Source of the DNA: a phage
Length of the DNA stretch: 44,793 nucleotides
Direction: 5' to 3' (one strand)
Sequence record: PZ445535.1
Below, in pieces: positions 2,920-39,759 of the stretch. Under the pieces are notes generated by a model. The model saw only the letters and a list, made by a program, of their open reading frames with translations, was not told the DNA's origin and ran no database searches. Position 1 is the first letter of the stretch. Each line of letters begins with the position of its first letter. Both the position numbers and the translations under genes were made by a program.

Positions 2920-4006
2920 CCAACGACTGGCGGATCGCATGATTCGCCGTCACATCTTCACCCAGCGCCTGAGCAACGAGCAGGCGCGTAAGGTGCTGGA
3001 GATGTGGCAAAAATTCCGACCTGCGTTATTGGGTAAGCTGACCGAGTTACTGGATGGCAAGAAGTCAATGAGCAATAAGGCGCTTACCACACTGCTAACC
3101 CAAATCGACAAGACGGTTAAAACCGAACTGCGCAACGAGTTTAAGGTGCTGGCTGAAGGTCTGGCGGAGTTCTCTGATACCGAGGCTGAATATCTGACAG
3201 ACACATTAACGGCAGCACTTCAACCGGCGCTTTCGGTCCCTGCCGTGGAGGTTGTTGGCGTAGTGACTGGTGCGCAGATTGCAGCGACGGCGATGAAAAA
3301 TCCATTCCTGGGGAATACGCTTTTGCAGTGGCCTGATTCTCTGTCAGAATGGACCAGAACGCAGATTAGTAACCAGGTGCGCGCCGGATTTATCCAGGGC
3401 AAACCTACTATGCAAATTATCGCGGACGTCAAGCGCGCATTAGGCGGTCGTAGCGCGCAGGCCATTTCAAGCGTGGTCAAGTCTGCGGTAAACCACTATG
3501 CGGCTACCGCACGCGAATTAATGGTAAAAGCAAATGATGATATTCTCGACGGTCGCCAGTGGCTTTCTACACTGGATACTCACACCTCCACGCTCTGTCA
3601 GTTACGCGATCGCCTGTTTTATCCGGTTGATGTTACTCCCGAAACAAAAGGGAAACGGGACGGTAAAGTGGTGGCTGGATCACAGTATGGCGCTGGTCCG
3701 GGCAAGCTACATTATTGCTGCCGCTCGACTGAGACGTGGAAAGTCAAAGGTATGGAAGATTGGCCCAGTGGTAAGCGTCCGGCACTGAAGGCTGAGGCGG
3801 GTAAACTGCTAAGTGAGCAGGTCAGCGCTAAAACGGACTTCTTCTCCTGGGTGCAACGGCAGCCTCGGCATATCCTTGAGGAATTATACGGAGTGCAGCG
3901 CGCGGACCAGATCCTGCGGGGCGTGAAAGTGCCGACCATGTTTAACGACGCAGGCGAGCTAATGACGATTCAACAACTAAAAAATAAGGGGTTATGGCGT
4001 GATTAA
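2903..4006 (+). CDS. head morphogenesis protein (Mu F / SPP1 gp7-like)
   Basis: 367 aa; overlaps portal stop by 17 nt; conserved-looking DTHTSTLC ... HYCCRS segment; position after portal. Confidence 0.6.
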   Translation: MPQKINQRLADRMIRRHIFTQRLSNEQARKVLEMWQKFRPALLGKLTELLDGKKSMSNKALTTLLTQIDKTVKTELRNEFKVLAEGLAEFSDTEAEYLTDTLTAALQPALSVPAVEVVGVVTGAQIAATAMKNPFLGNTLLQWPDSLSEWTRTQISNQVRAGFIQGKPTMQIIADVKRALGGRSAQAISSVVKSAVNHYAATARELMVKANDDILDGRQWLSTLDTHTSTLCQLRDRLFYPVDVTPETKGKRDGKVVAGSQYGAGPGKLHYCCRSTETWKVKGMEDWPSGKRPALKAEAGKLLSEQVSAKTDFFSWVQRQPRHILEELYGVQRADQILRGVKVPTMFNDAGELMTIQQLKNKGLWRD

Positions 4007-4307
4007 ATACGCAGCTATCGGATTGATTCTCGGCCTTGTAATTGGATTCTGGCAAGGTGACAACTACCGTGCTGGCGTGGTGGCGGAGGCGGCGCAAGAA
4101 GCGCAAGCCCAAGCCCAACGGCAGCAAACTAAGGTCATTCATAAATCAGTGCAGAACGAGCAGGCCCGCGAAGTGGAGTTCCGCACCGTTGAGAAAGAGG
4201 TGATTAAATATGTCACGCGTCCTGATCGCGATAATTGTAAGTTTGATGCTGACCGCGTGCGGATCAAGCAACGTGCCGTTGATGCCGCTAACGGAATCGG
4301 CAATTAA
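3999..4307 (+). CDS. i-spanin (Rz-like)
   Basis: 102 aa; GTG start; N-terminal TM segment AAIGLILGLVIGFW then charged Q/A/E-rich coiled-coil-like region; contains an embedded lipoprotein ORF in another frame. Confidence 0.6.
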   Translation: MIKYAAIGLILGLVIGFWQGDNYRAGVVAEAAQEAQAQAQRQQTKVIHKSVQNEQAREVEFRTVEKEVIKYVTRPDRDNCKFDADRVRIKQRAVDAANGIGN

Positions 4308-4440
4308 GCCGCCGTGTAAGTTTGAGTCACCATCGGAAGATCCAGATGAGGATTTAGCGATTGATGTGCGAAATATGAAATGTGGGGCTGAGCTAAGGGC
4401 GCAAGTGCTGGATTTGCAGGAATTAATTAAGGGGCCGTGA
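4210..4440 (+). CDS. o-spanin (Rz1-like) outer-membrane lipoprotein
   Basis: 76 aa; signal peptide with lipobox LTAC; Pro-rich; starts inside Rz ORF in a different frame and extends beyond it; RBS AAGAGG 9 nt upstream. Confidence 0.6.
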   Translation: MSRVLIAIIVSLMLTACGSSNVPLMPLTESAIKPPCKFESPSEDPDEDLAIDVRNMKCGAELRAQVLDLQELIKGP

Positions 4441-4455
4441 TGGCCCCCTTTTCTG
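4429..4455. terminator. bidirectional intrinsic terminator between convergent Rz1 and moron gene
   Basis: GGGGCC-GTGAT-GGCCCC hairpin followed by CTTTTCT on plus strand and by TTAATTAATT on minus strand. Confidence 0.5.
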
Positions 4456-5217
4456 TTAGCGCGGAATACCGCAAATCTCGTTTAGTGTTTTCACGTCAAG
4501 CGCTACTGCCGTTGACTTTTTCTCTTCCTGCGGGATGAACTGTTTAACTTCGGGCCATGCCTTAATAAGTTTGGTGTCTGTGGTGTATTTATTCAATGTT
4601 CCCATAACCGACAATTTAAACTCATCATATTTTGCACGTAAAGCCCGGCGTGCTTTGTCGTTCTTATCCAGACGTTTGCAAAACTCATGATCTGCCGGGT
4701 AATCTGCACGACCCCGCGGCATGTAGATCGGCACTTGCTCGCCTTCCTCGTTGAGTTCCACCAGCGCCGCAAGTAGCGCCGTCGCAAACCCCGGTACGAT
4801 TTCGCCAATATCAGGGGCCATCATGTTATTGAATTTATCCTCCCAGTACCCGCGATGGCAACGCCAGCTATAGTTATCGCCACTCAATGACAGTGTGCGA
4901 ATATTCCCGCCCATGTTGACTTCGAACGTTGCGTCATATACAGACCCGATGCCGTGGGGCATGTCTTTGTTATGGCTGAAGGTAGCGCGGCTGGCGTACA
5001 CGCTTATGCTAAACATATTGTTGTATGCGTCTTGAAAGCTGCGCATCATTTTCTGCAAACCGACGAAATTGGTAACACCTTCCGGCATCTGATCCATGGT
5101 GATAGCCATAGCAAGGTCGCGCGATTCGGCCATTATCTTTTTGGCCTGCTTCGTGATTTCGTGGTCGGCCAGGATGTTAGCCAGAATCTGCTTTTTAATG
5201 TCTTTGGTCAGTCTCAT
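4456..5217 (-). CDS. hypothetical protein (reverse-oriented moron in head module)
   Basis: 253 aa (MRLTKD...); RBS GAGGAA 6 nt upstream of ATG at 5217; own sigma70-like promoter; convergent terminator shared with Rz1; no motif recognised. Confidence 0.6.
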   Translation of the reverse strand: MRLTKDIKKQILANILADHEITKQAKKIMAESRDLAMAITMDQMPEGVTNFVGLQKMMRSFQDAYNNMFSISVYASRATFSHNKDMPHGIGSVYDATFEVNMGGNIRTLSLSGDNYSWRCHRGYWEDKFNNMMAPDIGEIVPGFATALLAALVELNEEGEQVPIYMPRGRADYPADHEFCKRLDKNDKARRALRAKYDEFKLSVMGTLNKYTTDTKLIKAWPEVKQFIPQEEKKSTAVALDVKTLNEICGIPR

Positions 5218-5247
5218 CGTCATTTCCTCATTGGTTGGTGTGCAACC

Positions 5248-5276
5248 AATATATTGCAACCAACCCCCGTATGCAA
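5248..5276 (-). promoter_or_regulatory. sigma70-like promoter for moron gene (TTGCAT-N17-TATATT)
   Basis: Minus strand reads TTGCAT acgggggttggttgcaa TATATT ggttgcacacc...GAGGAA; contains ATTGGTTGCA motif. Confidence 0.45.
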
Positions 5277-5283
5277 GCAAATT

Positions 5284-5311
5284 TTGCGATTATTTTTATC
5301 ACTGATAATAT
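5284..5311 (+). promoter_or_regulatory. sigma70-like promoter for scaffold/capsid operon (TTGCGA-N16-TAATAT)
   Basis: TTGCGA at 5284-5289, TAATAT at 5306-5311, about 55 nt upstream of scaffold ATG. Confidence 0.4.
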
Positions 5312-5366
5312 TAGGGGCGTGAAGTCGAGCGGGTGGCCCGTTCTGCCACAATCCCTGGGGGATGTT

Positions 5367-6071
5367 ATGAAACTGACTAAAGCAGAATATGACGCGTTGC
5401 CAGAAGGCATGAAGGCTTTATTTGTTGCCGACGGTGACGGGTACAAGGCGACTTTTATGACCGCCGAAGAAGTACAGGCCGAGATCAAAGGTCTGAAGGA
5501 TAACAATGCAAAGCTGGTAGGTGAGAAGAAGGCAGAAGCCGAACGCCGTGCCGAAGCGGAGCGCATCGCTAAAGAGAAAGAGGAAGCCGCCGCGCGCAAA
5601 AATGGCGACCTCGAAGCGATCGACAAGTCATGGAAGGACAAATTCGCTAAATACGATGCGGATACGCAGGGCAAAATCGAAGCCTACCGTAAACAGATTC
5701 ACGATCTTACCATCGGCAGCGCAGCTAAAGACCTGGCATCAAAGCTGTTCGGTAAGAATGCTGGCATTATGCAACGCCACGTTATGGACCGCCTTGCATT
5801 GGAAGACGGCGAAGACGGCAGCCTGAAGGTGCGCGTATTGAAGGACGGCAAACCGTCCGCACTGACTATGGAAGAACTAGAAAAAGAGTTCCGTAGTAAC
5901 GAAGATTTCGCATCCGTCCTGGCTGGTACTCCTGCCGGTGGTGCGCCGAGTAAGCCGACCCACGTCATCGACGATCCGAAATCTAAGATCCAGATGGGCC
6001 ATAGCTTCGGCATTACTGACCTTACCAAACAGGCCAGCGATATTATCGCCAAACTGGGCGACGACGAGTAA
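5367..6071 (+). CDS. scaffolding protein (putative)
   Basis: 235 aa; highly charged with AEAERRAEAERIAKEKEEAAARK coiled-coil segment; immediately upstream of major capsid gene. Confidence 0.5.
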   Translation: MKLTKAEYDALPEGMKALFVADGDGYKATFMTAEEVQAEIKGLKDNNAKLVGEKKAEAERRAEAERIAKEKEEAAARKNGDLEAIDKSWKDKFAKYDADTQGKIEAYRKQIHDLTIGSAAKDLASKLFGKNAGIMQRHVMDRLALEDGEDGSLKVRVLKDGKPSALTMEELEKEFRSNEDFASVLAGTPAGGAPSKPTHVIDDPKSKIQMGHSFGITDLTKQASDIIAKLGDDE

Positions 6072-6076
6072 GCAGG

Positions 6077-6101
6077 TTGCCCGCGAAAGCGGGCAATTTT
6101 G
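6077..6101 (+). terminator. weak intrinsic terminator / attenuator between scaffold and capsid genes
   Basis: TTGCCCGC-GAAA-GCGGGCAA hairpin followed by TTTT. Confidence 0.4.
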
Positions 6102-6168
6102 CGAGCATGAAAAATTAGGGTAACATTAAAAGCACTGGGCGATTGCTCTCTACTCAAAGGATAAATTT

Positions 6169-7281
6169 ATGTCTTTAACAGTGTTCCAGCGTAAACTCGT
6201 CACCGCGGTTACGCAAATGATCCCCGACAACCTGAACGTTTTCAACGCTGCCGCTAACGGCGCAGTTGTTCTCGGTACTGGTGAAGTGCTGAAGGATGTT
6301 GTCGAGAAAATGTCCGTCGGTTTGATTGCCAACCTGGTAACTGACCGTAACGCCTATGCGCCGGTCGGTACTCCTGCCGATGCGAAAGTGCTGGCGCGTA
6401 TGCTGACCAACTCCGTCAACCTATCCGCGAAAGTGGGTCCGGTTGCAATCACCAAAGCTATGATGGCTAAAATCGAAACCAACGTTAACAGCGTTGCGGC
6501 GGAGATTGCGGCACAGGCTACTCAAGCGATCTTGCTGCACTACCTGAAAGCGGGTATCGGCGCGGGTAAAGCTGCGATCGACTCTAACGAGAAAGCGAAA
6601 TATACCCAACCGGAGCGCGTTGACGGGGTAGGCGGTCGTACCTTCCCGACCCTGGCAGACTTCCCGCTGGCGGCGGCTAAGTTCGGCGATCAGGCATCTT
6701 TGATTAAATCCTGGTTTATGGACGGCGTTACCTGGGCTAACTTCATCGCCTATCAGGCGCTTCCTTCCGCCGAGCAGGTCTTCGCGATTGGCGACCTTCA
6801 GGTAATGGGTGATGGCTTAGGACGCCGCTTTATCATCTCCGATGCTGCTGCCGATGCAATGGGTGCGGATAACAGGTGCATGTTGGGTCTTGTTCCGGGC
6901 GCGGTTGCCGTTACCACCAACGGTCTGGACATGCTGGCGCAAGAACGCGGTGGCAACGAGAACATCGAGCGCTGGTGGCAGGGTGAGTTCGACTTCAACG
7001 TGGCGGTTAAGGGCTATCGACTGAAAGCGTTAGCACGCGAAGGCGTCGAAGGCGTACGCTCTTTCACACTGGCAGATATTACCAATAACCGCAATTGGGA
7101 ACCGGATCAGGGCCAGGTTGATAACGCGCCGTACACCACCCACGACGTAGGGGGTACGGATACCGAAGAATCCTCATCTGCACCTCTGAAAGGTCGCCGC
7201 CGTAAGCAGGACGTACCTACCCGTCACATCAAGGAAACTGCCGGTGTGCTGGTAACTCTGACGGCAACTAAAGCATCTTAA
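6169..7281 (+). CDS. major capsid protein
   Basis: 370 aa; RBS AAAGGA; follows scaffold; strong intrinsic terminator directly downstream. Confidence 0.75.
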   Translation: MSLTVFQRKLVTAVTQMIPDNLNVFNAAANGAVVLGTGEVLKDVVEKMSVGLIANLVTDRNAYAPVGTPADAKVLARMLTNSVNLSAKVGPVAITKAMMAKIETNVNSVAAEIAAQATQAILLHYLKAGIGAGKAAIDSNEKAKYTQPERVDGVGGRTFPTLADFPLAAAKFGDQASLIKSWFMDGVTWANFIAYQALPSAEQVFAIGDLQVMGDGLGRRFIISDAAADAMGADNRCMLGLVPGAVAVTTNGLDMLAQERGGNENIERWWQGEFDFNVAVKGYRLKALAREGVEGVRSFTLADITNNRNWEPDQGQVDNAPYTTHDVGGTDTEESSSAPLKGRRRKQDVPTRHIKETAGVLVTLTATKAS

Positions 7282-7298
7282 TTGGTGCATACCCAAAC

Positions 7299-11190: not shown

Positions 11191-11256
11191 AGGTTGGTTG
11201 CAAAATGACTGATACAATACAAACGGCAACTTGCATAAAAAGGGGGGGACTGCATA

Positions 11257-20118: not shown

Positions 20119-20143
20119 GAAGGGGCCAAACGGCCCCTTTTTC
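20119..20143 (+). terminator. intrinsic terminator after J-like gene
   Basis: AAGGGGCC-AAAC-GGCCCCTT hairpin followed by TTTTT. Confidence 0.7.
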
Positions 20144-21107
20144 AATACATATTAGGAAGGACAATAAGCGGAGTAGGTACTGCTATGTTGCGGTTGGGTA
20201 TCAGGAATTGCCGCCGTGAGTAGTTACCGACGACGCGGCTTTTAGCGATACGCACTTTGTTACCCGCCATGCGTATACCGTTCATGCGTACGTGGTTGTA
20301 ACCGCCGTTATTCTCTATCAGCGTGCCGGTGTATGAAAGCTGGATCATACTGTTTCCAATATCCTGGTCCCCCGTGCCAATATTAATCACGCGATTAAAA
20401 ACGAATGGCTTCTTGACCGTGGAGAACGTGACCTGCCCCTGGTTGTTGGTCATCGTGATACCAGCCCCCGGCTGAGGCGGCGTATTGTTGAATATGGCGA
20501 GGTCTAAGTCAACGGCAGCCGCCACGTCGTCAATCCCGCCGTACGAGGCATTGCGGACAATGATATTGGTCCCGTCGAAGGCTACCGACACGTTGCCGTC
20601 GTCCCATCGCGCAAATGGGATGCCACCTACCGGTAATTTCATACTCCCGTTGACGCGAACGCGGCCCACATACTGGCAGGTCATCAGCTTTGCTACGTTA
20701 GATATGGCAGTGAAGTCGGTAGAGTTAGCTACCAGAAGCCCCGCATTGCGCGACCCCACCGGCAGCACTTCCATAATAGTCCCGGCCCATTGAGGCAGGC
20801 CGCTATACGCCCTGAACGCATCAGCGCCACGCAGCGTTACGCCGTTATTGCCGTTTCGCGACACAGACGTAACGTACATCGGATCAGGGATGACCAGAGT
20901 CTGGTCTAATACCTCCATCACTTCAACCGGTCGGGTAAGCACTACTACGACCTGCGATCCTGGCGTTAAGGGTGTATTGATTGTTAGCGTTTTGTCAGAC
21001 TGACAGCGCTGATTGAAGTTTGCACAAAAAGACGGGGCACGAAGCCCCGCGGTGATTTCCATTCTTGGCCTGCCATCGTTATATTCGATAAGAATGCCTG
21101 CACCCAT
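20142..21107 (-). CDS. putative receptor-binding / host-range protein
   Basis: 321 aa; Gly/Asn/Thr-rich, beta-type composition; RBS GGGAG 8 nt upstream; directly downstream of a lipoprotein gene on the same strand, inside the tail fiber region. Confidence 0.4.
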   Translation of the reverse strand: MGAGILIEYNDGRPRMEITAGLRAPSFCANFNQRCQSDKTLTINTPLTPGSQVVVVLTRPVEVMEVLDQTLVIPDPMYVTSVSRNGNNGVTLRGADAFRAYSGLPQWAGTIMEVLPVGSRNAGLLVANSTDFTAISNVAKLMTCQYVGRVRVNGSMKLPVGGIPFARWDDGNVSVAFDGTNIIVRNASYGGIDDVAAAVDLDLAIFNNTPPQPGAGITMTNNQGQVTFSTVKKPFVFNRVINIGTGDQDIGNSMIQLSYTGTLIENNGGYNHVRMNGIRMAGNKVRIAKSRVVGNYSRRQFLIPNRNIAVPTPLIVLPNMY

Positions 21108-21109
21108 AA

Positions 21110-21334
21110 TTACCACTCCCGTGATTTAACTGATACTGTACCTGAGAAGTTACCATCTGCATCGGCGGACAAGCCAGTGTAGCGCATGTCAATGTCTCCG
21201 GTCGCGACCTTTTGCCCATCTACATAACGCAACATGCAGCTTCCAGCGACGTAGGTTACGCAATCACCGTTATGGCGCTCAACCGCACAACCGGACAGCA
21301 TAGCAACGACTAAAATACTTAATAAAGTTTTCAT
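21110..21334 (-). CDS. lipoprotein, putative superinfection-exclusion (Llp/Cor-like)
   Basis: 74 aa; signal peptide MKTLLSILVVAMLSGC with lipobox; RBS AAGGAG 8 nt upstream; own promoter; next to putative RBP. Confidence 0.5.
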   Translation of the reverse strand: MKTLLSILVVAMLSGCAVERHNGDCVTYVAGSCMLRYVDGQKVATGDIDMRYTGLSADADGNFSGTVSVKSREW

Positions 21335-21363
21335 GGTATCATCTCCTTTGTTTTGACAACTTA

Positions 21364-21392
21364 AATATAGTGCAACCAATACGAGATTGCAA
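21364..21392 (-). promoter_or_regulatory. sigma70-like promoter for lipoprotein/RBP cassette (TTGCAA-N17-TATATT)
   Basis: Minus strand: attggTTGCAAtctcgtattggttgcacTATATT; tandem ATTGGTTGCA motifs. Confidence 0.45.
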
Positions 21393-21415
21393 CCAATTAA
21401 TAAGGAGTTTTCGCG

Positions 21416-24554: not shown

Positions 24555-24583
24555 AATATAATTGGTTGCATTATTGGTTGCAA
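24555..24583 (-). promoter_or_regulatory. sigma70-like promoter (TTGCAA-N17-TATATT) with 5' stem-loop
   Basis: Minus strand: cacTTGCAAccaataatgcaaccaatTATATT; GC stem-loop CGGGAGG...CCTCCCG at 24525-24546 at predicted 5' end. Confidence 0.45.
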
Positions 24584-25041
24584 GTGAATTTTGCAAGATT
24601 CACTGAATAAATGTGCGGGACCAGTTCTTCGCACGCCCGTTTGATGGCGGCTATGTTCTTCGCGCAGTCGTCAATGATGACCAGTTCGTTAACTTCTGCG
24701 TAGCACACCAGGCCAAATACGGAACGAGCTTTATATTCCGGCGGCGGGGTGTCATCCAGCATGTGGCGCAAGAACAGACGGCCTTTCGGGAATCGGTCTA
24801 ATTGCTCTTTCGTTGTCTCCCAGCATTCAGACTGGCGGTTTGACAGGTACGCGATGTCGAAGCCCTGTTTAGCGTACATGCGCAATAACGGCAGCATGTC
24901 ATAATTAATGTCTTCGCGGACGTGGGCCTTATGCCACTTCGCCCAAAACGTTGATTTAGTCTTGATCCCCGGAACTAGGTCGTCGCGCACACTGCTTGAC
25001 CCGTTGATAACGCCATCTAAATCGCAAATCAGTAGTTTCAT
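24571..25041 (-). CDS. HAD-superfamily phosphatase-like protein
   Basis: 156 aa; HAD motif I DLDGV at residues 7-11, then YLSNR and K...IIDD motifs. Confidence 0.55.
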   Translation of the reverse strand: MKLLICDLDGVINGSSSVRDDLVPGIKTKSTFWAKWHKAHVREDINYDMLPLLRMYAKQGFDIAYLSNRQSECWETTKEQLDRFPKGRLFLRHMLDDTPPPEYKARSVFGLVCYAEVNELVIIDDCAKNIAAIKRACEELVPHIYSVNLAKFTCNQ

Positions 25042-25259
25042 TTTAATTCCGCCATTAAATTTTCACGTACAATACGGGCCGAGAATGCGTCGCACACAAG
25101 ATGGCAACGCGCCGTCATGACAAGCCAGCCAGTTAGGTCAAGGCCCAGCAATTGATGTGGTTGGCTTGCGCGCCTTACTTTATTTCCAGGGAAAACCTGG
25201 TAGCGTTTAATTATTTCATCCACGACGCGAGGACTTCGGTCGACGACTAAGATATTCAT
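25038..25259 (-). CDS. hypothetical protein
   Basis: 73 aa; RBS AAGGTG 7 nt upstream; ATGA overlap with downstream gene. Confidence 0.4.
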   Translation of the reverse strand: MNILVVDRSPRVVDEIIKRYQVFPGNKVRRASQPHQLLGLDLTGWLVMTARCHLVCDAFSARIVRENLMAELK

Positions 25260-26464: not shown

Positions 26465-26493
26465 AATATAATGCAACCAATCTCGCAATGCAA
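26465..26493 (-). promoter_or_regulatory. sigma70-like promoter (TTGCAT-N17-TATATT)
   Basis: Minus strand: attggTTGCATtgcgagattggttgcatTATATT; tandem motif copies. Confidence 0.45.
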
Positions 26494-26498
26494 CCAAT

Positions 26499-29905: not shown

Positions 29906-32197
29906 TTACTTCCTGTATCTGTACATAATGTCGCCTTCGGCGGCAAGTGGGAAGCCTTTCGCCCAAATAGGTAGGTCGCACATCAGCGCGCAAAGCTCCT
30001 CGGTCGTGTAGTCGTCGGTGTCCGGCACTTCTGTGATCAATTCGTCGTGTACTGACAGGACTATTTCATAGCCCGCAGCTTCAACGCCAGGCATGGACCA
30101 TGCGAGAATATCACGGCATAACGCCTGTACGATGTTTTCCGTCAGTTTGCCGCCGTAGGTATACTGGAAGCCCCACTGGCGCGTCGTCTGATTCTCGCCC
30201 TGGTATTTGATGCGTGTGCTAGTGCGCTTCTTGCCGGTGTCTTCGTCAATCTCGGTCGTGACAGACAGAGCGATGCCGGGGTAGCTCATGATGCGCCCCG
30301 ACGGCAACTCAATTTTCAGCCACCAGCCCGGCGCATCCGGGTCGTCCCGTTCATCATCAAACGTTGGGTCGTGCTTCGCCTTCGTGCGCATGATTTTAAG
30401 CGCTTGTTTGCCGTCTGGACGCACGTTAGCACCTGCCCAGTATGATTTACCCGGATTGCGGATTGCGCACAGCACAGCGTCTTCCAGTTCGGCCCAAAAT
30501 GCGACCGTTTCCGGGTGAGACTCACGCCACATACGCTTGATTGCATCACAGGTCAGCCACACGTTCTTCGGCAGGATGTAAGTCGGTCGCTCGTCCTTCT
30601 TGCCAGGCTTCGGCGGGCGCTTCGCTTCGTTAATCTTCGCGTACTCGTAACCGCGTTTAGCCGCGGCCCAAATATGATCCGGGAACGTACCCTTCATTAC
30701 GTCAGCCATCGTGTACAGGTCCAGACCCAGGTTTTTGGCAAACTGCAAGAACGCCGCAACGCCGCCGCCGTAGCCGAGGCCCAATTCACACGCCTTACCG
30801 ATCTGGCGGAGGTCTTTGCGGTTGGCCTTGATATAATCCGGGTCGAGGCCGAACATCTTACCGGCAGTTTCGCAATAAATATCGCGTCCCGCCTTAAAGA
30901 CCATCAACGCAGTTTTCTCGCCCGCAATCCAGGCAAGGCCGCGTCCTTCCACGTTGGAGTAGTCCGCTACAACAAACTTCTTACCCTTAGCCGGGATAAT
31001 GCAGCCGCGTACGGTCGATGCTGTCAGCTTAGATATGTCGTACGCCCAGTGTGCGGTCCCGCGTAATAGGGAATTGATGCCGTTGGTGAGCATGTGCGAC
31101 CGGACCCAAAAAGCGACGTCGCTCTCGCCTTCGCGGCGCTTAATCTTCCCTTCGTGATCGTCGCTATACTCGCCACGCGCCAGGTTTTGAGGCTGGAAGC
31201 CCTTACCGGCCCAACGCAATGTACGCTTAGCCCCGCCATACTGCAGACAACCACGGCGGCGACCATCGGAAGACAGCCCATTGACGAGCGGATTATATTT
31301 GGTCGATGCCGTTGATGACGCACCGAGGCGCATTTCAATCAGCACTTTGCCCTCGTCCGGGAAGTCAGGATCCGCAAGAAGGTCGTGCAGCGTGGATTTC
31401 TGCGCATTATGGATAGTGAAAGCCGGAGCAATATCGCGCAGCAATGGCAGGAAGTCGTTGCCGGTTAGCTTACCGCCAAACTTCTCCATAGCCTCTTCTT
31501 TCAGTTCTTCTTTGTGCGCTTCCACGGCTTTAATCGCGGCGTAGGCCAGTTTGGTGTCCACGTTAAAACCGCGGTCGTTGATCAACTGGTCAATTGCCAG
31601 TATCTGGTCTTCCTTCGGAGTATTACCCCAATCCGGGATCCGCCAGTACACCTCACGCATTGCGATGATGTCGTATTTCGCATACTTGAGGAATTTGGCC
31701 CACTCTTCAGGGTGAGTCTCGCGAGTGTAGCGGCGGACTTTGTAAGTCTTCGGCGTTGGCTTACAGAATCGCTTAATCAGCGCCTTGCCTGCTTTATCTT
31801 TCGCATGTTCGGCATCAACGCCCAGTACCTGGCACTGCATATCGAGGCTGCCAGGTAATGCGTGGCGAAAGGCCATAATCATGGTGTCTTCGATCTGGCT
31901 AACCGGCAGGTCAATACCCCACTTCTCGCGGATAACCAGGCGGTCAAACAGGAGGCCGTTAGCCATGACGATTTTTGCTTTCTTGCGGACTACCGCACGC
32001 AATGCCTTACGCAGTTCACTCGGCATCTTCGGCGATTCGGTAGCGTCCCACGTCTGCACGCGGCCCTCGTCTATGGCGTAGGTGCAAATCATAATCTCGG
32101 TGGTTGGGTGCTCCGCGTAGGCGTACGCCCCTACTTTCTTCAGGTCCACCCCGCTAAATGTCTCGGTATCGAGAAACAGGCGTTCGAAGTCTTTCAT
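29906..32197 (-). CDS. DNA polymerase I family (family A) with 3'-5' exonuclease domain
   Basis: 763 aa; N-terminal exo motif LFLDTETFS; polymerase motifs including LSVHDELITEV near C-terminus; RBS GAGGA 7 nt upstream. Confidence 0.9.
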   Translation of the reverse strand: MKDFERLFLDTETFSGVDLKKVGAYAYAEHPTTEIMICTYAIDEGRVQTWDATESPKMPSELRKALRAVVRKKAKIVMANGLLFDRLVIREKWGIDLPVSQIEDTMIMAFRHALPGSLDMQCQVLGVDAEHAKDKAGKALIKRFCKPTPKTYKVRRYTRETHPEEWAKFLKYAKYDIIAMREVYWRIPDWGNTPKEDQILAIDQLINDRGFNVDTKLAYAAIKAVEAHKEELKEEAMEKFGGKLTGNDFLPLLRDIAPAFTIHNAQKSTLHDLLADPDFPDEGKVLIEMRLGASSTASTKYNPLVNGLSSDGRRRGCLQYGGAKRTLRWAGKGFQPQNLARGEYSDDHEGKIKRREGESDVAFWVRSHMLTNGINSLLRGTAHWAYDISKLTASTVRGCIIPAKGKKFVVADYSNVEGRGLAWIAGEKTALMVFKAGRDIYCETAGKMFGLDPDYIKANRKDLRQIGKACELGLGYGGGVAAFLQFAKNLGLDLYTMADVMKGTFPDHIWAAAKRGYEYAKINEAKRPPKPGKKDERPTYILPKNVWLTCDAIKRMWRESHPETVAFWAELEDAVLCAIRNPGKSYWAGANVRPDGKQALKIMRTKAKHDPTFDDERDDPDAPGWWLKIELPSGRIMSYPGIALSVTTEIDEDTGKKRTSTRIKYQGENQTTRQWGFQYTYGGKLTENIVQALCRDILAWSMPGVEAAGYEIVLSVHDELITEVPDTDDYTTEELCALMCDLPIWAKGFPLAAEGDIMYRYRK

Positions 32198-32364
32198 TGC
32201 TTAATCCTCACTACGGCGTCAGCGCTGCCGATCATGGAGAAGATGCCGTCGGACATGGCGATCTCTTCACCGTTGTTGCGAATCTCGGCAACTGTGAAAT
32301 ATTCCCCCAGTAGCTTAGACCATACTTTCATTCCGACTTTTACTTCGCTGGCTTTAATCCGCAT
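32194..32364 (-). CDS. small hypothetical protein
   Basis: 56-aa ORF MRIKASEVKVGMKVWSKLLGEYF...; stop overlaps polymerase ATG (ATGA); weak RBS; not in supplied ORF track. Confidence 0.3.
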   Translation of the reverse strand: MRIKASEVKVGMKVWSKLLGEYFTVAEIRNNGEEIAMSDGIFSMIGSADAVVRIKQ

Positions 32365-32378
32365 TTTTCATTGTCCTA

Positions 32379-32404
32379 TTAAAAAGCCCGCATTAAGCGG
32401 GCTT
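32379..32404 (-). terminator. intrinsic terminator after SSB-like gene
   Basis: On minus strand AGCCCGC-TTAAT-GCGGGCT hairpin followed by TTTTT. Confidence 0.65.
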
Positions 32405-32422
32405 GAATAGTGGGCTTTGCCC

Positions 32423-33193
32423 TTAACGGCGGCGACGTTTACGTGGCGCTTCGTCGTCGTCCTCATCTTCGTCATCGCGTGGTTTACGACGTTTGCGAGG
32501 TTTTTCGTCTTCGTCTTCGTCGTCGTCATCGCGGCGCTTGGACTTTTTGGACTTACGCGGCTTGTCGTCATCGTCATCACGACGTTTTGACTTTTTGGAC
32601 TTACGCGGGCTTTCATCTTCGTCATCGTCGCCCAGGTCTTCGTCGGAACATGAAGACCCGCCACCGCCGAAGGCTTCGCCGTCATCACGGAAGCGCATAC
32701 CCAGCAGACCACAGCCTAAGCCTTTGCCGTTGGTATTGTTCCAGGCCCAAATATCTAAGGAAACGTTGCAATAGCAACCGGAATAGATTTCCTTCCCTTC
32801 GATTTCGTCGCCGTCGATGGTCAGACCCTGCTCCGTCTGCTTCTCGCCTTCGGAAGTCTGGATGATCGGCTGTTTGAATGATTTGGCATTGATGTACAGC
32901 TTTCCTTCAAACTCTTCCGTCACTTCTTCACGCTCGTCACCATCACGAACTGCACATTCTTTCGAATCCTGTGCGTAGTGGCGGTCCATCCACTTATCGG
33001 CGTTCTTTTCAGACTTCAGCTTTTCGGTGAGCACTGCGCGTGCCGCCGCTTCCACTTTGTCCACCTGCGGATCTTCTTTATCAAGAATAATCACCGCACG
33101 AAATGCCGGTTTTTGTCCATCCTGTTTAGGGGTATCACGCTCCCAAATTTTCAGGAAGCATACACGTACATTTTTCAGGTTGACTTTAGCCAT
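32423..33193 (-). CDS. ssDNA-binding-like protein with charged repeat tail
   Basis: 256 aa from ATG 33193 (MAKVNLKNVRVCF...); RBS GAGGAA 7 nt upstream; C-terminus built from 16-aa DDDDDKPRKSKKSKRR repeats; SSB assignment is from N-terminal pattern and context only. Confidence 0.45.
   Translation of the reverse strand: MAKVNLKNVRVCFLKIWERDTPKQDGQKPAFRAVIILDKEDPQVDKVEAAARAVLTEKLKSEKNADKWMDRHYAQDSKECAVRDGDEREEVTEEFEGKLYINAKSFKQPIIQTSEGEKQTEQGLTIDGDEIEGKEIYSGCYCNVSLDIWAWNNTNGKGLGCGLLGMRFRDDGEAFGGGGSSCSDEDLGDDDEDESPRKSKKSKRRDDDDDKPRKSKKSKRRDDDDEDEDEKPRKRRKPRDDEDEDDDEAPRKRRRR
32537..32609 (-). repeat. 48-bp tandem repeat in SSB-like gene tail
   Basis: GACTTTTTGGACTTACGCGG at 32541-32560 and 32589-32608 (forward strand); encodes two DDDDDKPRKSKKSKRR units. 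Confidence 0.7.
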
Positions 33194-33257
33194 TTTCCAA
33201 TTCCTCAATTTGCATGTATCGGGGTTATTAGAAGCCACCCCGTCCGGCTTGGTTGCT

Positions 33258-33286
33258 AATTTACTTGGTTGCGTTTCCGCGGTCAA
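33258..33286 (-). promoter_or_regulatory. candidate promoter for SSB-like gene (TTGACC-N17-TAAATT)
   Basis: Minus strand: TTGACCgcggaaacgcaaccaagTAAATT; motif copies CGCAACCAAG / AGCAACCAAG. Confidence 0.35.
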
Positions 33287-33289
33287 GCA

Positions 33290-33523
33290 TTATTTATCAA
33301 AAAGTTTTAAAATCAGGTCGAGATATTTGTGCAGCCACACCAGCGGCGGGCGGTGCACGTTGTTCTCCATCCAGTTCAAACAGGCTTCGTTGTAGCCGTC
33401 GTCCCATAGGCGGGATGGGTGGCGAATCATCCAGGCCAGCGCCGGCAGACCGCCGCAGGTATGTACTACGAATCCCAGTACCGCCAACGGCAGCACCATA
33501 ATCATTGCCAGAATCTTATTCAT
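33290..33523 (-). CDS. small membrane protein
   Basis: 77 aa; hydrophobic N-terminus MNKILAMIMVLPLAVLGFVV; RBS GAGGA 8 nt upstream. Confidence 0.4.
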   Translation of the reverse strand: MNKILAMIMVLPLAVLGFVVHTCGGLPALAWMIRHPSRLWDDGYNEACLNWMENNVHRPPLVWLHKYLDLILKLFDK

Positions 33524-34946
33524 CGTTTAAATCCTCGTCGCTTGCTTCTTGCCATTCCGGGCGCGGGTCGTCAACTGGTGCCAGGACTGGTTTCGCAGGT
33601 GCACGCGTGATTTTATCTTGCAGCTTCGCCCACACTTTCGGTTTCTCATCCTTCAGCACCTTCTCCGCGTCGGTCGGACTGATTAATGATTCCTTGTACA
33701 TCAGGTCGCGCTTGATCCGGGCCGTGGAGAATACGGCGATGACCTCGCTTTCATCCTTCCACTTACGCGCACCTTCACGACCAGCTACCAGCTTCAGGCC
33801 CAGCGCTTCGCCATCACCGGCTAACACAGCTTTGAATACGGCAGCCTCGATCGCTTTGATGTGCTGGCGCATGGTTTCCAGACCGTCGTAAGCCTTTTTC
33901 AATTCTTCCGTGGTCATTGCACCGGCCGGCGCTTCTTTCTCGCCACGCTTCGCACGTCGGGCCGCTTTCCGGGCTTCGCGGGCCATGTTCCGGTCGTGGT
34001 TTTTGCATTCTTCCTCGGTGGCAATGCTTACATCGTCGCCCAGGTCTTCGTCGGTTGCCGTTGGTGGCGTCATTGTGTCGATGGCGGCTTTAGCGCGGGC
34101 GCTACATTGATCCGCAAATCGACACCACTGACACGCATCGGCGCTCGGACGGAAGTCTGCACGGGTGAGATTCTTCTTACCCTTAGCGAAGGCATCCAGG
34201 GCGGCTACTGCGCGTTTTGCTGCGTACTTGGCGAAGATTTCCAGTGCTTCCACCGAAATATCCCACTCCGACGCCCCGCCGCAATACGGCTGGAATATGA
34301 CCAGGCGCACGGTTGTTATGTCGTACATCTTTTGCAGCTTGCGCAGCAGTCCGAGCGCATACAGCATAAGCTGTTTGTTCTCTTTCGCCTCGACCTTATG
34401 GCGTCCGGTCTTCAGGTCGCCAACAATCAGCATGTACGTGCCGTCGGTCTTCTTCATGACCATAACCATATCGGCAGTACCGAAGGTTTTAATCACCTCG
34501 CCGTCAATCTCGTAGCCTTTGTGCAGGACGCGTGTCAGATCCGCGCGCATCTCAAGCTGCACAAACTCGGCAACTTCAAGCAGCGGTCGCCAGTGGTCGA
34601 TGTACGCGTCGCACTGTTTCACCATGTCGTCAGTTACCAGGATGGCGTCCTTAGGTGCTTTCGCTGCTGCTTTAACTGGGCCTTTACCCTGATTTTCGAC
34701 GTAACACCCTTTATAGGTCTTCGCCGTTATATGGTCTTCACCCGCGATAATGCGGTTTAGCACCACTTCAGATACGGTGTGCATACTCGTACCATTGATC
34801 GCGGCTTGCCCGGATTCGTTCGGAATACCTTTCTCCACCACCAGGGCGGCAGGACACCCCATCCATTTTTTAGCGCCGGATGGGCCGAGTAATGAGTGTT
34901 CTGTGTTACTGCCGGATTGCGTCTTGCGCTTCGCTTTGATAGCCAT
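33516..34946 (-). CDS. PD-(D/E)xK exonuclease, Cas4/RecB-like, with Cys cluster
   Basis: 476 aa; nuclease motifs ADMVMV...LIVGDLKTGRHK and QLMLYALG; four-Cys cluster C...CQWCRFADQC (Fe-S type); RBS GAGGG. Confidence 0.7.
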   Translation of the reverse strand: MAIKAKRKTQSGSNTEHSLLGPSGAKKWMGCPAALVVEKGIPNESGQAAINGTSMHTVSEVVLNRIIAGEDHITAKTYKGCYVENQGKGPVKAAAKAPKDAILVTDDMVKQCDAYIDHWRPLLEVAEFVQLEMRADLTRVLHKGYEIDGEVIKTFGTADMVMVMKKTDGTYMLIVGDLKTGRHKVEAKENKQLMLYALGLLRKLQKMYDITTVRLVIFQPYCGGASEWDISVEALEIFAKYAAKRAVAALDAFAKGKKNLTRADFRPSADACQWCRFADQCSARAKAAIDTMTPPTATDEDLGDDVSIATEEECKNHDRNMAREARKAARRAKRGEKEAPAGAMTTEELKKAYDGLETMRQHIKAIEAAVFKAVLAGDGEALGLKLVAGREGARKWKDESEVIAVFSTARIKRDLMYKESLISPTDAEKVLKDEKPKVWAKLQDKITRAPAKPVLAPVDDPRPEWQEASDEDLNDE

Positions 34947-36313: not shown

Positions 36314-36643
36314 ATGAATATCAACGAAGCAATTGAAGTGTTATCTAATGCAATCCGCGGCGAGTCTGGTAAATCCTGGTATTACACAAATGCGGTGGAT
36401 ACTCTGTTATTTGAAGTGTCCAGATTATCGCGTGCCGAGAAAGAGCTTACCGCCAAACTTGAATTGCTGAACGGTACGGCAGCGAGCAAGCTGCAAAAGC
36501 ATAACGAAGAAATGGAAGAATACAAAAAGCAGGTTATCAGACTGCGCGAAGAGGGTAAGTCCTGGGCGATGATTGCCGAGTTAACAGGCATTAACCAGAG
36601 CACGGTGCGATCCTGGGTACGCAATACTAAAACCGCTAAGTAA
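36314..36643 (+). CDS. helix-turn-helix DNA-binding protein (putative regulator)
   Basis: 109 aa; C-terminal HTH-like SWAMIAELTGINQSTVRSWV; RBS AGGAGG; first gene of divergent plus-strand operon. Confidence 0.55.
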   Translation: MNINEAIEVLSNAIRGESGKSWYYTNAVDTLLFEVSRLSRAEKELTAKLELLNGTAASKLQKHNEEMEEYKKQVIRLREEGKSWAMIAELTGINQSTVRSWVRNTKTAK

Positions 36644-36652
36644 GGGATTGAG

Positions 36653-38920
36653 ATGATGAGAAATATAGAATTTGCGATCACACCTCCCGCAAAGAAAGGT
36701 GAATCAGCGGTAGCCCATAACCAATCCATGACTACCGCCGAGTTTTTCGAGTTTATGCTGGATGCGCCGGTGGTGTCGTCAGTTTGCATTAACGGCACTG
36801 AAGATAAGAAAGAATACGCCCGTCGTAAGCGTAAAGGCGACGGTATTGTGGCGACCACCGCCGACGGTACGCGTAAGAAGACCGGCGTTGTTGACCGTTC
36901 GATCCTGTTCTTTGACCTGGACCGCGCCGACAACCGCACACTTACCCGCTGCCGTAGGGCTTTTCGCAAGTCCGGGCTGGAGTATGTCTATCACACCACC
37001 ACCGGCGACCGCCACCCGTTGAAAGACGGCAAACGTTGCGCCCGTTTCCTTGTGCTGACAAACAAACCAGTTCCGGCTGAAGACCTGGGCCGCGCGCAGG
37101 CTGCACTGCTCGAACAACTGGGCCTTACAGACGCGGGCTTTGATGACTGTTCGAAAGACACAAACCGTCTTATGTACTTGCCACACCAGCAGGCTAAGGT
37201 CGAATGCCATGAAGGTAAACGCGCTAACGTGCGTCGTCTGCTTCGCCGGGCTGACCGGATGGGTATTGAGCAGGAGACGTTTCGCCGTGAACTGGCGCAG
37301 GGCGACGACGAGCAGATGAACGGAATCCTCGACTGGTGTTTCCAGGCTGGCTTTGAGCCGTTGCCATCCGGGCGCGGTTATGAAGTGCCGTGCCCGAACG
37401 AACATCTGCACTCTGGCGAAGGGTCAACCGCTATCATGCTTAAGGATGGCGAGATCCGTTTCAAATGTATGCACACCGGCAACGGTTGCTGTTCGGAACT
37501 GAACAAACACCAGCACCTGGCGCTACGCATGATTGGCATCCCGGATATTTATAACGTGGAACCGCACAACATGTCACGCAAACAGATCTCGGCTATCCTG
37601 CCAGGTCTGGACGATGAAGAAGTGGACGCGCAGTATGAGCACATGGTCGATCTGGTAGGTGAGGGTGAGGATTATGCTTCCTGTACCGACGCAGACCTGG
37701 AAGACGAACCGACGGCGCTGTTCTCTAAGCACGACCCGATCATCGAAGGTCTGATTAACTTCAAATCGACCTGGTACGCAGCGGGCGAGTCGAACATTGG
37801 TAAGTCCTTCTTTGTCCTGGGTCAGATGGCTGCCGTTGCCGCTGGCATTCCGTTCGGCGGCGCGAAGGTCGTCCAGTCACATTGCTTCTATTTCGATGCG
37901 GAAGGTGGCGAGGCGTCACACCAGCGTAAAGAGGCACTGCAGATTAAATATGAGCACGACCTGGATAAGCTGCACATTATCGACCTTCAGGCCCGCGGCT
38001 GGGATATTACGAGCAAATCCGGCCTGCGTGAAGTCATCAGCTTTATCAACCGCACCGCGGATGGTGAACCGGTCGGCCTGGTGGCATTCGACTCCCTTAA
38101 CCAGACAGTGGCCCTGCGATCTGCTGACGCCAAACCGTTCGATGAGAACAACGCAAGCGATATGGGTGAGATTGTCAAAGCGCTGAAGGCCATTGCGGAA
38201 AACACAGGCGGCAGTGCGGGCGTCATCCACCACCCGGCTAAGGGTGCAAACGGCAGCAGATCCCCGCGGGGGTCCGGTGCGCTACATGGCGCGGTGGATT
38301 CTGCATTCTTCCTGGAACAGCCAGACGAGAATCAGCCGGGCCAGCTAAACCTGTACCACGAAAAAGCACGTAACGGCGTCAAACAGGGTCCGCGCGGCTT
38401 CGTGCTACTGAAGTGCAAAGTATCCATTAACGAGCGCAAGTCTGACTCGTTCGAAGCGCACCAGTCCACTAACCCCGGACCGGACTTCGGCGATGTAGTT
38501 GCCGGATGGGACGTCAAGCCAATCCAGGCCACGCCGCGCGACGAGACTCTGTACCTCGTACCGGTAGCGCTGACCCCGTTCGCTATTGAACAGGCTAAGG
38601 CGGCAGGCAAGCAGGCTGTTAAGGATGAGAACACCGCAGGCCCGCGCAATGAAAAAGAGAAAGTGCTGTACGCAGCGCTCGAAGCGTTGATGGAAGAGAA
38701 TCCGGGCCACCACGGCTTCAGCAAATCGGCAATCGTCCGCAAAGCTGGGCTGGCGAAAGGCGGCACTTCGACGAAGCCAATCGACGATATGCGCGAGCGC
38801 GGAATCATCGGCTTTTACAAAGACCCGGACACCGGGGCCATTTACGGGTCGTCGAATCTGGTTATCAATTCACAAATATCTATGCAATTGACGGCGACGG
38901 ACGACGACCTTAAAGATTAA
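36653..38920 (+). CDS. DNA primase-helicase (AEP-like N-terminal domain, zinc motif, RecA-fold ATPase)
   Basis: 755 aa; N-terminal FFDLDRAD / HTTTGDRHPL acidic motifs; Cys/His cluster CPNEHLH...CMHTGNGCC; Walker A AGESNIGKS and Walker B LVAFDSL. Confidence 0.65.
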   Translation: MMRNIEFAITPPAKKGESAVAHNQSMTTAEFFEFMLDAPVVSSVCINGTEDKKEYARRKRKGDGIVATTADGTRKKTGVVDRSILFFDLDRADNRTLTRCRRAFRKSGLEYVYHTTTGDRHPLKDGKRCARFLVLTNKPVPAEDLGRAQAALLEQLGLTDAGFDDCSKDTNRLMYLPHQQAKVECHEGKRANVRRLLRRADRMGIEQETFRRELAQGDDEQMNGILDWCFQAGFEPLPSGRGYEVPCPNEHLHSGEGSTAIMLKDGEIRFKCMHTGNGCCSELNKHQHLALRMIGIPDIYNVEPHNMSRKQISAILPGLDDEEVDAQYEHMVDLVGEGEDYASCTDADLEDEPTALFSKHDPIIEGLINFKSTWYAAGESNIGKSFFVLGQMAAVAAGIPFGGAKVVQSHCFYFDAEGGEASHQRKEALQIKYEHDLDKLHIIDLQARGWDITSKSGLREVISFINRTADGEPVGLVAFDSLNQTVALRSADAKPFDENNASDMGEIVKALKAIAENTGGSAGVIHHPAKGANGSRSPRGSGALHGAVDSAFFLEQPDENQPGQLNLYHEKARNGVKQGPRGFVLLKCKVSINERKSDSFEAHQSTNPGPDFGDVVAGWDVKPIQATPRDETLYLVPVALTPFAIEQAKAAGKQAVKDENTAGPRNEKEKVLYAALEALMEENPGHHGFSKSAIVRKAGLAKGGTSTKPIDDMRERGIIGFYKDPDTGAIYGSSNLVINSQISMQLTATDDDLKD

Positions 38921-39240: not shown

Positions 39241-39396
39241 AAAATCTCTGGTTGCATAATCAACGGCAGCATAGTGAAAATTGCGGCGGGGGTAGATCTC
39301 GGCAACCAATGCATGTTGGATAATGGAGAGTGAAAAATGCAGTTTGCAATTGCAACTCATAGCGATCAGCATTTCCATGCGCGTGATTGATATTGG

Positions 39397-39425
39397 TTGC
39401 ATTCAGCCTGGCACCTTGCTATATT
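39397..39425 (+). promoter_or_regulatory. sigma70-like promoter (TTGCAT-N17-TATATT) for early genes at 39454+
   Basis: attggTTGCATtcagcctggcaccttgcTATATTggttgcacaccaac; shares a 20-nt block with the promoter at 5248-5276. Confidence 0.5.
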
Positions 39426-39453
39426 GGTTGCACACCAACATGAGGACTGAACG

Positions 39454-39759
39454 ATGAGAGCATTAATCTGGAGTTACACATCAGCGGTCGCAGCGCTCTA
39501 TGAAGCGAAGCACACAAACGGCAACGCCGACCACGCACGCCAGGCTGTCATGTTCGCGCAGCAGGCAATCTTTGCAGCGTTCGACAACATGGACGCCAGC
39601 CTGGATGAACTGGAACCATTGCGTGTGGCAATCTGCGAGTATGCGATGAAATTCGCCCGTGAGCGTCTTGCTTACCGGTTTGGCATCGGCGAAACGGCGA
39701 CGGCTAACATCGCCCGCATTCAGGCCCAGCGTGAGCTACACGCCTTACTTGCGAAATAA
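39454..39759 (+). CDS. hypothetical early protein
   Basis: 101 aa; RBS GAGGA; first gene after promoter TTGCAT-N17-TATATT. Confidence 0.5.
   Translation: MRALIWSYTSAVAALYEAKHTNGNADHARQAVMFAQQAIFAAFDNMDASLDELEPLRVAICEYAMKFARERLAYRFGIGETATANIARIQAQRELHALLAK

Follow-up and report, generated by a model that had tools for sequence, protein, structure and literature searches.

A reversed nmad5 gene in its own predicted transcription unit among the head genes of a Dhillonvirus, and what the usual neighbours of its family suggest about its role

The sequence analysed here (PZ445535.1, 44,793 nucleotides; referred to in its entirety as the window) represents all or nearly all of the genome of a Dhillonvirus, a coliphage of the HK578-like kind, in which an open reading frame (ORF) of 253 codons lies reversed in the head-gene region. 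This ORF, at 4456-5217 on the minus strand, is the Dhillonvirus orthologue of nmad5 and encodes a full-length member of the Nmad5 family (28.8 kDa, pI 8.3). The gene order at the locus is portal, head-morphogenesis protein, an i-spanin/o-spanin pair, the reversed nmad5 ORF, scaffold, and major capsid protein (MCP), and all of the neighbours run in the direction opposite to nmad5. A preliminary description made from the sequence alone had the coordinates and orientation of the ORF right and spoke of flanking head genes; the immediate neighbours on the left are in fact lysis genes, the overlapping pair for i-spanin and o-spanin (3999-4307 and 4210-4440, plus strand), with head genes beyond them, and the scaffold gene (5367-6071) lies to the right. 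A search with positions 3000-7000 brought up 159 phage records, headed by Escherichia phage Ioannina and Dhillonvirus LM40P1 (92%), with most of the others at ~81-82% identity. Neither Rfam families nor tRNAs were found in the window.

The coding sequence begins with an ATG at 5217-5215 and ends with a TAA at 4458-4456. A ribosome-binding site (RBS), GAGGAA at 5224-5229 (read 5229-5224 on the minus strand), lies 6 nt upstream of the ATG, as had been proposed, and its GAGGA core is present in all relatives. The mechanical ORF extends upstream to a TTG at 5280; the ATG at 5217 is taken as the real start because of the position of GAGGAA and because MRLT is the conserved N-terminus of the family.

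The protein had been described as lacking any recognisable motif, which did not survive profile searches: it matches the whole of Pfam model PF18757 (Nmad5, "nucleotide modification associated domain 5"; model positions 1-206/206, E=2.6e-45, 155.5 bits against a gathering cut-off of 27), and also PHROG 1965, of function unknown (E=9.9e-52). The Ioannina orthologue carries the same Nmad5 annotation, and an identical protein (100%) is already in public assemblies (P0001); the family, and the locus itself, are known from the literature and from annotation pipelines. All signatures of the family are found in the window protein, namely (M)RLT..I...I at the N-terminus, a helix with T-x-x-K/R-L-x-x-x-W-P-E, and L-N-x-x-(I/C/L)-G-(L/I)-P at the C-terminus. 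An exhaustive profile search placed the relatives in 612 clusters at 50% identity, typically of ~200 amino acids; the window protein is ~45 residues longer than typical members through insertions in its middle domain. NCBIfam and PADLOC models gave no match to the product, and the searches revealed in it neither a membrane or nuclease domain nor that of a known toxin.

That nmad5 is a real coding gene under purifying selection is evident from ratios of nonsynonymous to synonymous divergence (dN/dS) of 0.09-0.13 against nine relatives. The constraint is uneven, with a pN/pS of 0.02-0.06 in codons 181-253 and of 0.3-0.4 in codons 46-105; no sliding window exceeds a dN/dS of 1, and positive selection is therefore not demonstrated. 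At the same time nmad5 is the most diverged gene of its neighbourhood: its product shares 62-67% of amino acids with that of most Dhillonviruses, where the portal, head-morphogenesis, scaffold and MCP proteins reach 87-93%, and only the allele of the Ioannina/LM40P1 clade is close (91%). Synonymous divergence is ~2.4 in nmad5 and 0.6-1.0 in the flanking genes, a trough of nucleotide identity (47-69%) is restricted to 4477-5213, and the GC content of the gene (49.0%, against 53.6% for the window) falls in the lowest 4% among windows of equal size. As a sequence pattern, this divergence looks like allele replacement through recombination.

Signals at both ends mark the gene off from its surroundings. 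The convergent o-spanin and nmad5 genes are separated by a GC-rich hairpin at 4431-4447 (GGGGCC-GTGAT-GGCCCC, with a 6-8 bp stem and a 5-nt loop), a predicted bidirectional intrinsic terminator of the kind that the preliminary description had placed here. It folds on the two strands at -17.5 and -16.7 kcal/mol (z = -2.3 and -2.5), holds the o-spanin stop codon TGA (4438-4440) within its loop, is followed by the T-tract CTTTTCTGTT on the plus strand and by a weaker T/A tract TTAATTAATT on the minus strand, and is kept in 9/9 relatives examined. Given the strong fold, the tracts, and the conservation in nine relatives, a shared convergent terminator is a sound prediction.

At the other end, a generic sigma-70 promoter scan reported no promoter in the 149-bp divergent intergenic region (5218-5366), so that the early-type promoter claimed in the preliminary description finds no support from that scan; what does stand is a conserved element, recognised by eye, which belongs to a family of repeats in this genome. 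The predicted sigma-70-type promoter (5248-5276, minus strand) consists of a -35 hexamer TTGCAT (5276-5271), a 17-nt spacer and a -10 hexamer TATATT (5253-5248), an 8/12 match that lies under the threshold of the scan and is conserved in 10/10 relatives aligned. Three copies of a repeated element, TTG(G/C)TTGCA, at 5241-5280 on the minus strand (5280-5272 with 1 mismatch, 5263-5255, and 5249-5241) overlap its -35, its spacer, and its -10/+1. The last of them pairs with CAACCAAT (5237-5230, minus strand) as an 8-bp inverted repeat or a hairpin of the 5' untranslated region, and the 5' region of the gene folds at -18.2 kcal/mol (z -2.8). Back to back with this promoter, and read from the sequence in the same way, stands a candidate divergent promoter for scaffold and MCP (TTGCGA, a 16-nt spacer and TAATAT; 5284-5311, plus strand), in a region that is conserved in relatives and again below what the scan reports.

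The 9-mer TTGGTTGCA, which often occurs as ATTGGTTGCA, has 14 exact copies in the window where 0.46 would be expected, mostly as tandem pairs. Sites of the element lie at 5241-5280(-), 21371-21396(-), 24562-24582(+), 26472-26497(-) and 39393-39432(+), and single copies at 11194(+), 36116(+), 39956(-) and 42687(-). The layout of the nmad5 promoter, in which the -35 is made by the end of one copy, the spacer contains another and TATATT comes next, recurs at three of these sites: at 21396 on the minus strand, upstream of a second reverse-oriented cassette (a lipoprotein and a DUF6453 protein, 20142-21379, minus strand); at 26497 on the minus strand, within the leftward non-structural operon; and at 39393 on the plus strand, upstream of the ORF 39454-39759(+). 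From the -10 to the ATG, the leaders of nmad5 (5248-5215, minus strand) and of the last of these ORFs (39424-39456, plus strand) are nearly identical. The ORF 39454-39759 behind this paralogous promoter was also considered as an Nmad5 remnant and rejected, with no similarity and an hhalign probability of 0.4%. The TTGGTTGCA elements are probably this phage's own family of promoters or operators for non-structural units, which makes it plausible that nmad5 has a promoter of its own of the non-structural, early type. As read from the sequence, nmad5 is set apart from the head operon as a unit by the direction in which it runs, by a predicted promoter and an RBS, and by the convergent terminator that it shares.

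Full-length nmad5 was found in 146 of the ~159 phage records matching the region, a count that is a lower bound for the gene at this position, and in the records inspected it always lies between the spanins and the scaffold; with at least 146/~159 records alike, it is a genus-wide feature and not a sporadic moron. The sole deletions seen are in JL1 and Teewinot, which keep only 5' remnants, so natural loss of the gene is tolerated. In some relatives the interval from the conserved promoter to nmad5 holds an extra ORF, which in SSL-2009a, JL1 and Lzu_P3 encodes a PHROG 24635 protein (104-109 amino acids, function unknown; orf8 of SSL-2009a, record L008, 2632-2961, plus strand), and in SM_W22 an unrelated protein of 172 amino acids (record L011, 2439-2957, plus strand) whose ORF holds an internal direct duplication. 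The hairpin GGGGCGAAAGCCCC stands between the extra ORF and nmad5. Since nmad5 is near-universal and the extra ORF patchy, the cassette is genus-wide and its upstream slot is variable. The synteny comparison called for in the preliminary description thus gave a divided answer, variation in content being found in the upstream slot of some relatives and, apart from the two deletions, not in nmad5 itself; homologues at the same position in all relatives and with a structural role, which that description had named as evidence to the contrary, were found as to position, nearly throughout the genus, and not as to a structural role.

The protein itself offered no catalytic hints. In an AlphaFold2 model from a 17-sequence alignment (pLDDT 83.9, pTM 0.79), residues 5-62 form three helices at the N-terminus, and the acidic middle, where conservation is poor, contains a small beta-sheet (79-110); there follow a long helix (178-208), short helices (214-227), and a low-confidence tail (229-253). 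Four parts can be distinguished: a basic helical N-terminus (residues 1-62); a variable, acidic, beta-containing middle (63-175); a long helix, again basic, that bears the signature T213-x-x-K216-L-x-x-x-W221-P-E (176-228); and, at the C-terminus, the conserved tail TAVALDVKTLNEICGIPR (236-253). The pI is 9.6 for the two basic helical parts and 4.8 for the acidic middle. In a sample of 137 sequences (the window protein and 136 family members, mostly representatives of the 50% clusters), the residues conserved family-wide are R2, L3, T4, I7, I11, G104, G113, P167, T213, K/R216, L217, W221, P222, E223, P229, L245, N246, G250, L/I251 and P252. Position 216 is K or R in 99/137 sequences, and L217 is kept in 134/137, W221 in 136/137, P222 in 135/137 and E223 in 124/137; it is the low-confidence C-terminal tail that forms the most conserved part of the family. 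The conserved residues are mostly hydrophobic, Gly or Pro, with R2, T213, E223 and N246 in addition, and on the alignment they do not make a catalytic-looking set. The fold search advised in the preliminary description brought no resemblance to a protein of known structure: Foldseek found no match in the PDB with E <0.37, a profile search of PDB sequences found none, and at E <1e-3 the named matches in BFVD were Nmad5 or 'conserved phage protein', beside several nameless ones (target-normalised TM-scores, TMt, of 0.47-0.82). In all, fold, profile and conservation searches revealed no catalytic fold or catalytic-type residue set.

The neighbourhoods of the family elsewhere are more informative. 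Among 70 IMG/VR loci, 31 after dereplication at 90%, the order DUF2800 PD-(D/E)XK nuclease, Enc34-type protein that binds single-stranded DNA (SSB), Nmad5 occurs in 12/31, and DNA polymerase A (PolA) lies <=4 genes from Nmad5 in 9-11/31, mostly immediately downstream. Other neighbours are also of the early or replication type (N peptide, HTH repressors, lambda P, primase, AAA_24/DUF669, SNF2 and dUTPase), and neither aGPT-Pplase nor 5-hydroxymethyldeoxyuridine (5-hmdU) kinase is among the families listed for 150 neighbour proteins from 29/31 loci. In the lambdoid phage mEp235 the homologue belongs to the pL operon, where kil, erf, ssb and exo come after it; in Jilinvirus it is flanked by a helicase and a Holliday-junction resolvase; in Vibrio phage Athena1 it precedes replication protein O; and in Edwardsiella phage eiAU-183 it follows a helicase-primase. 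A second genome scan found 8 Nmad5 loci in Providencia, Xenorhabdus and Izhakiella genomes, and the 'LNAICG[IL]P' subfamily yielded 4 viral loci only and 0 genomic loci. Genes of thymidine hypermodification flank Nmad5 only in M6-like and LK3-like phages, where polymerase A is downstream too. From the announcement of phage SN1 and from the loci themselves, we infer that this setting is the rationale of the name Nmad5.

The window phage departs from this pattern. It has a T7-like module of its own on the minus strand (29906-34946), made up of a DUF2800 nuclease (33516-34946), an Enc34/T7-gp2.5-type SSB (32423-33286) and PolA (29906-32197), with a 225-bp gap between SSB and PolA (32198-32422) and without Nmad5; the Dhillonvirus copy therefore stands outside the usual module of its family. 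The helicase-primase of the window phage is encoded at 36653-38920. The neighbours of nmad5 here are spanins and head genes rather than nucleotide- or DNA-modifying enzymes. No thymidine-hypermodification genes were found in the window or its relatives, and the Dam and Dcm methyltransferases of the window genome lie >19 kb from nmad5.

Experiments on nmad5 have been reported for two sister phages, PhiSMA8 and PhiSMS22 (Yamashita et al. 2025, Commun Biol 8:290; PMC11846954). On Escherichia coli expressing the defence system Tmn, escape mutants of PhiSMA8 and of PhiSMS22-delta-anti-Tmn shared the nmad5 substitution K216E (or K296E); reverting it restored Tmn sensitivity, and engineering it in gave escape (PMC11846954). 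Deletion of nmad5 left PhiSMS22 viable and Tmn restriction in force, cloning and expression of the gene in trans failed with apparent toxicity, and the dedicated anti-Tmn gene is another ORF (PMC11846954). The authors treat nmad5 as a DNA-modification enzyme and note in the legend of their Fig. 4a that it is close to the capsid gene (PMC11846954). The window protein has the same lysine, in T-D-T-K216-L-I-K-A-W-P-E-V. Because K216E escapes Tmn and a deletion does not, it is probably the mutant protein and not the absence of the protein that interferes with sensing. The anti-defence role suggested in the preliminary description is not demonstrated by these results, as Tmn sensitivity is the same after nmad5 deletion and only the K-to-E point mutant escapes. 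As one of the known Dhillonvirus immune triggers nmad5 was ruled out, those being other genes: the KpAvs2 trigger is Ksap1, a 74-residue product of a distinct gene, the RAZR trigger is the portal, and escapers of Retron-Eco8 and Borvo map to SSB and polymerase.

We favour, with a probability of about one half, the view that Nmad5 has no enzymatic function and assists the replication or recombination of phage DNA as an accessory protein, and that in Dhillonvirus its gene occupies a relocated transcription unit of its own. The basic helical segments (1-62 and 176-228), which carry the family-conserved R2, K/R8 and K/R216, would form a binding surface together with the conserved and likely flexible tail (L245-N246-x-x-C/I-G-L/I-P252), and this surface may target DNA or a conserved partner in replication or recombination; the acidic middle domain (63-175) would be the lineage-variable part. 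In Dhillonvirus, the gene would have moved from the SSB-PolA module to a place among the head genes, preceded by a copy of the TTGGTTGCA-type promoter, and such a private promoter could let it be transcribed with the non-structural genes, apart from the head genes that it interrupts. Its activity would be visible to host immunity, as close relatives are no longer restricted by the KAP-NTPase Tmn once the charge of K216, in the signature helix, is reversed, presumably through an altered protein with a gained or changed interaction and not through loss of function. In this light the replication and recombination context across phages points to a relocated accessory factor of DNA metabolism more than to classical moron cargo, and it is improbable that Nmad5 belongs to the head, modifies DNA as an enzyme, or serves as a dedicated anti-defence effector.

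Several points weigh against this view. The link to replication is guilt by association, and the sample of loci behind it is biased to one sequence subfamily (pattern WPE[AV][KA]ELL); the low pLDDT of the tail may be a mere effect of the shallow 17-sequence alignment; binding to DNA or to a partner is predicted only; and the promoter is sub-threshold in a generic scan, its timing being likewise a prediction. Viable deletion mutants and natural loss speak against a core replication role, the position among the pL accessory genes of mEp235 would fit an anti-defence or host-modulating role equally well, and the authors of PMC11846954 regard nmad5 as a DNA-modification enzyme.

The alternative closest to the preliminary description, which saw accessory cargo in the manner of a moron, is that nmad5 is a counter-defence or defence-modulating gene, made early, whose variable middle domain is an arms-race surface. 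This we regard as possible but on balance doubtful. Several traits of accessory cargo do hold, including the autonomous-looking architecture, the dispensability (with natural loss in two relatives), the low GC content, the fast divergence (the gene evolves faster than any other in the region, and its dS of ~2.4 and the trough at 4477-5213 are the signature of allele replacement), and a relevance to immunity seen in the escape of K216E orthologues; the lambdoid homologue, moreover, lies among pL accessory genes, adjoining kil and an anti-RecBCD gene, and cloning appeared toxic. What does not hold is a sporadic distribution, for nmad5 is near-universal in the genus and not patchy. Also unfavourable are the unchanged Tmn sensitivity of deletion mutants with the anti-Tmn function in a different ORF, the lack of any sliding window with dN/dS >1 or of a PADLOC match, and the fact that replication genes are the strongest family-wide neighbours. 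The same neighbours tell against a host-takeover or toxic early protein that stops a host process such as replication or division, apart from phage replication, since a conserved SSB-polymerase position in many phages would be unusual for a shut-off gene; failed cloning with apparent toxicity, a predicted promoter of the non-structural type and the proximity of kil in a lambdoid phage speak for such a protein, but the toxicity is deduced from that failed cloning alone, the domain searches brought up nothing of the membrane, nuclease or known toxin type, and we consider the explanation unlikely.

We find it similarly improbable that nmad5 encodes an enzyme, or a specificity or targeting subunit, of DNA base modification and that the modification is what Tmn senses. 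The idea draws on the order found in M6-like phages and Bordetella LK3 (a two-part 5-hmdU DNA kinase, Nmad5, a thymidylate-synthase-like hydroxymethylase), and a targeting factor could in principle serve the Dhillonvirus Dam and Dcm methyltransferases. It is countered by the lack of hypermodification genes in the window and its relatives, by the 150 sampled neighbour proteins without aGPT-Pplase or 5-hmdU kinase among their listed families, and by the searches that found neither a catalytic fold nor conserved residues of catalytic type; and since Tmn sensitivity is the same after nmad5 deletion, a model of lost modification fails to explain escape. A role in head assembly or structure, finally, is highly improbable, its one argument being the position between the head-morphogenesis/spanin and scaffold/MCP genes. 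Against it stand the opposite orientation, the terminator of its own, and the homologues elsewhere in early or replication regions. In Dhillonvirus EE09, the 24 proteins detected in cell-free lysates include none of ~254 amino acids, and as the gene is also deletable in PhiSMS22 (PMC11846954) and naturally lost in JL1 and Teewinot, nmad5 is probably not a virion or assembly gene and, to judge from these relatives, is dispensable.

The favoured view of a replication or recombination accessory protein can be carried further, though only tentatively and with more doubt than belief: Nmad5 might be a widespread adaptor of the replisome or the recombination machinery (T7-like with SSB and PolA, lambdoid with Erf, SSB and Exo) that docks on a conserved partner by its tail and its K/R216 helix; membrane KAP-NTPases such as Tmn might read the state of the resulting complex; the Dhillonvirus gene would have been uncoupled under its private promoter, its middle domain diversifying under immune pressure; and a role in nucleotide modification would fall away.

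Comparison with known systems brings out what is particular to this locus. The nmad5 genes of PhiSMA8 and PhiSMS22 belong to the same genus and locus, their 254-residue proteins align end to end with the window protein, and the K216 helix is conserved; the window allele is nonetheless divergent (62-67% amino acid identity to most Dhillonvirus copies). The thymidine-hypermodifying Rabinowitzvirinae, Pseudomonas phages M6 and SN1 and Bordetella phage LK3, share with it ~38-40% identity over the C-terminal 80 residues, but there Nmad5 stands in a series of 5-hmdU kinase, Nmad5, hydroxymethylase, further genes and PolA, and the window has no such modification genes; unlike members of its family elsewhere, the window gene adjoins no nucleotide-modification or replication gene. 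Phage 'morons' are autonomous promoter-gene-terminator insertions in the late operons of lambdoid phages. With these nmad5 has in common a predicted promoter and terminator, a site between morphogenesis genes, a lower GC content, dispensability and, in some relatives, a slot of variable content; it differs in being fixed across almost the whole genus of a virulent phage, in that expression from a prophage is not known for it, and in coming from a family whose usual home is the replication or early region. The SSB of T7, gp2.5, docks on the replisome by an acidic C-terminal tail. By analogy, Nmad5 has a short conserved C-terminal segment that is predicted to be flexible, and in many phages it lies near SSB and PolA, yet its tail is hydrophobic or neutral (L-N-x-x-C/I-G-L/I-P) and it has no OB fold; the likeness is one of analogy and not homology.

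As nmad5 was already catalogued, and studied in sister phages, its presence here is not a discovery. What is new is modest: the argument from context that the name of the family probably misleads, together with the observations that Dhillonvirus nmad5 lies outside the SSB-PolA module and that the Tmn-escape residue lies in the signature helix. The published label "DNA modification enzyme" is based only on the gene neighbourhood of M6-like phages, and the commoner neighbourhood is that of SSB and DNA polymerase A; relabelling bears on how Tmn, a KAP NTPase, senses Dhillonviruses. With K216 in the most conserved helix of a family of >600 clusters, the contact it makes is probably general. To phage-therapy engineering the locus offers a tolerated and naturally variable slot in the morphogenesis region, one that is predicted to be transcribed separately.

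Several further observations concern the TTGGTTGCA elements. The second reversed unit of the genome (20142-21379, minus strand) is a two-gene cassette within the tail module, encoding a phage lipoprotein (PF24052) and a DUF6453 protein, and sits behind a TTGGTTGCA-pair promoter; it is a candidate superinfection-exclusion unit, and it would fit the idea of a moron better than nmad5 does. The TTGGTTGCA pair at 24562-24582(+) has no downstream TATATT, and nearby only minus-strand ORFs (>=70 codons) start or end; it may serve as an operator or an antisense promoter, or be a decayed site. At 36314-36643(+), opening the rightward helicase operon, lies the gene for a 109-residue protein with a helix-turn-helix (HTH) domain like region 4 of sigma-70 (PF08281, E=4e-7), which, speculatively, is a candidate regulator recognising the -35-like TTGGTTGCA elements.

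Other observations concern genes near nmad5 and links to host defence. The lipobox of the o-spanin is LMLTAC, and the spanin pair is ~37 kb distant from the holin and endolysin genes (about 41.2-42.2 kb). A second sharp trough of divergence lies at the 3' end of the MCP gene (7013-7297, plus strand), where nucleotide identity to relatives is 51-70%, the rest of the gene being mostly at 83-93%; the pattern suggests a swapped C-terminal or surface segment. Between the genes for Dam methyltransferase and a phosphatase, an ORF of 73 codons at 25038-25259 on the minus strand, without annotation in Ioannina, is kept in 158 Dhillonvirus-type records and is 100% identical to that of slur05. In position and length, this ORF agrees with Ksap1, which was described for SECphi18 as the trigger of Klebsiella Avs2 (bioRxiv 10.1101/2024.01.31.578182).

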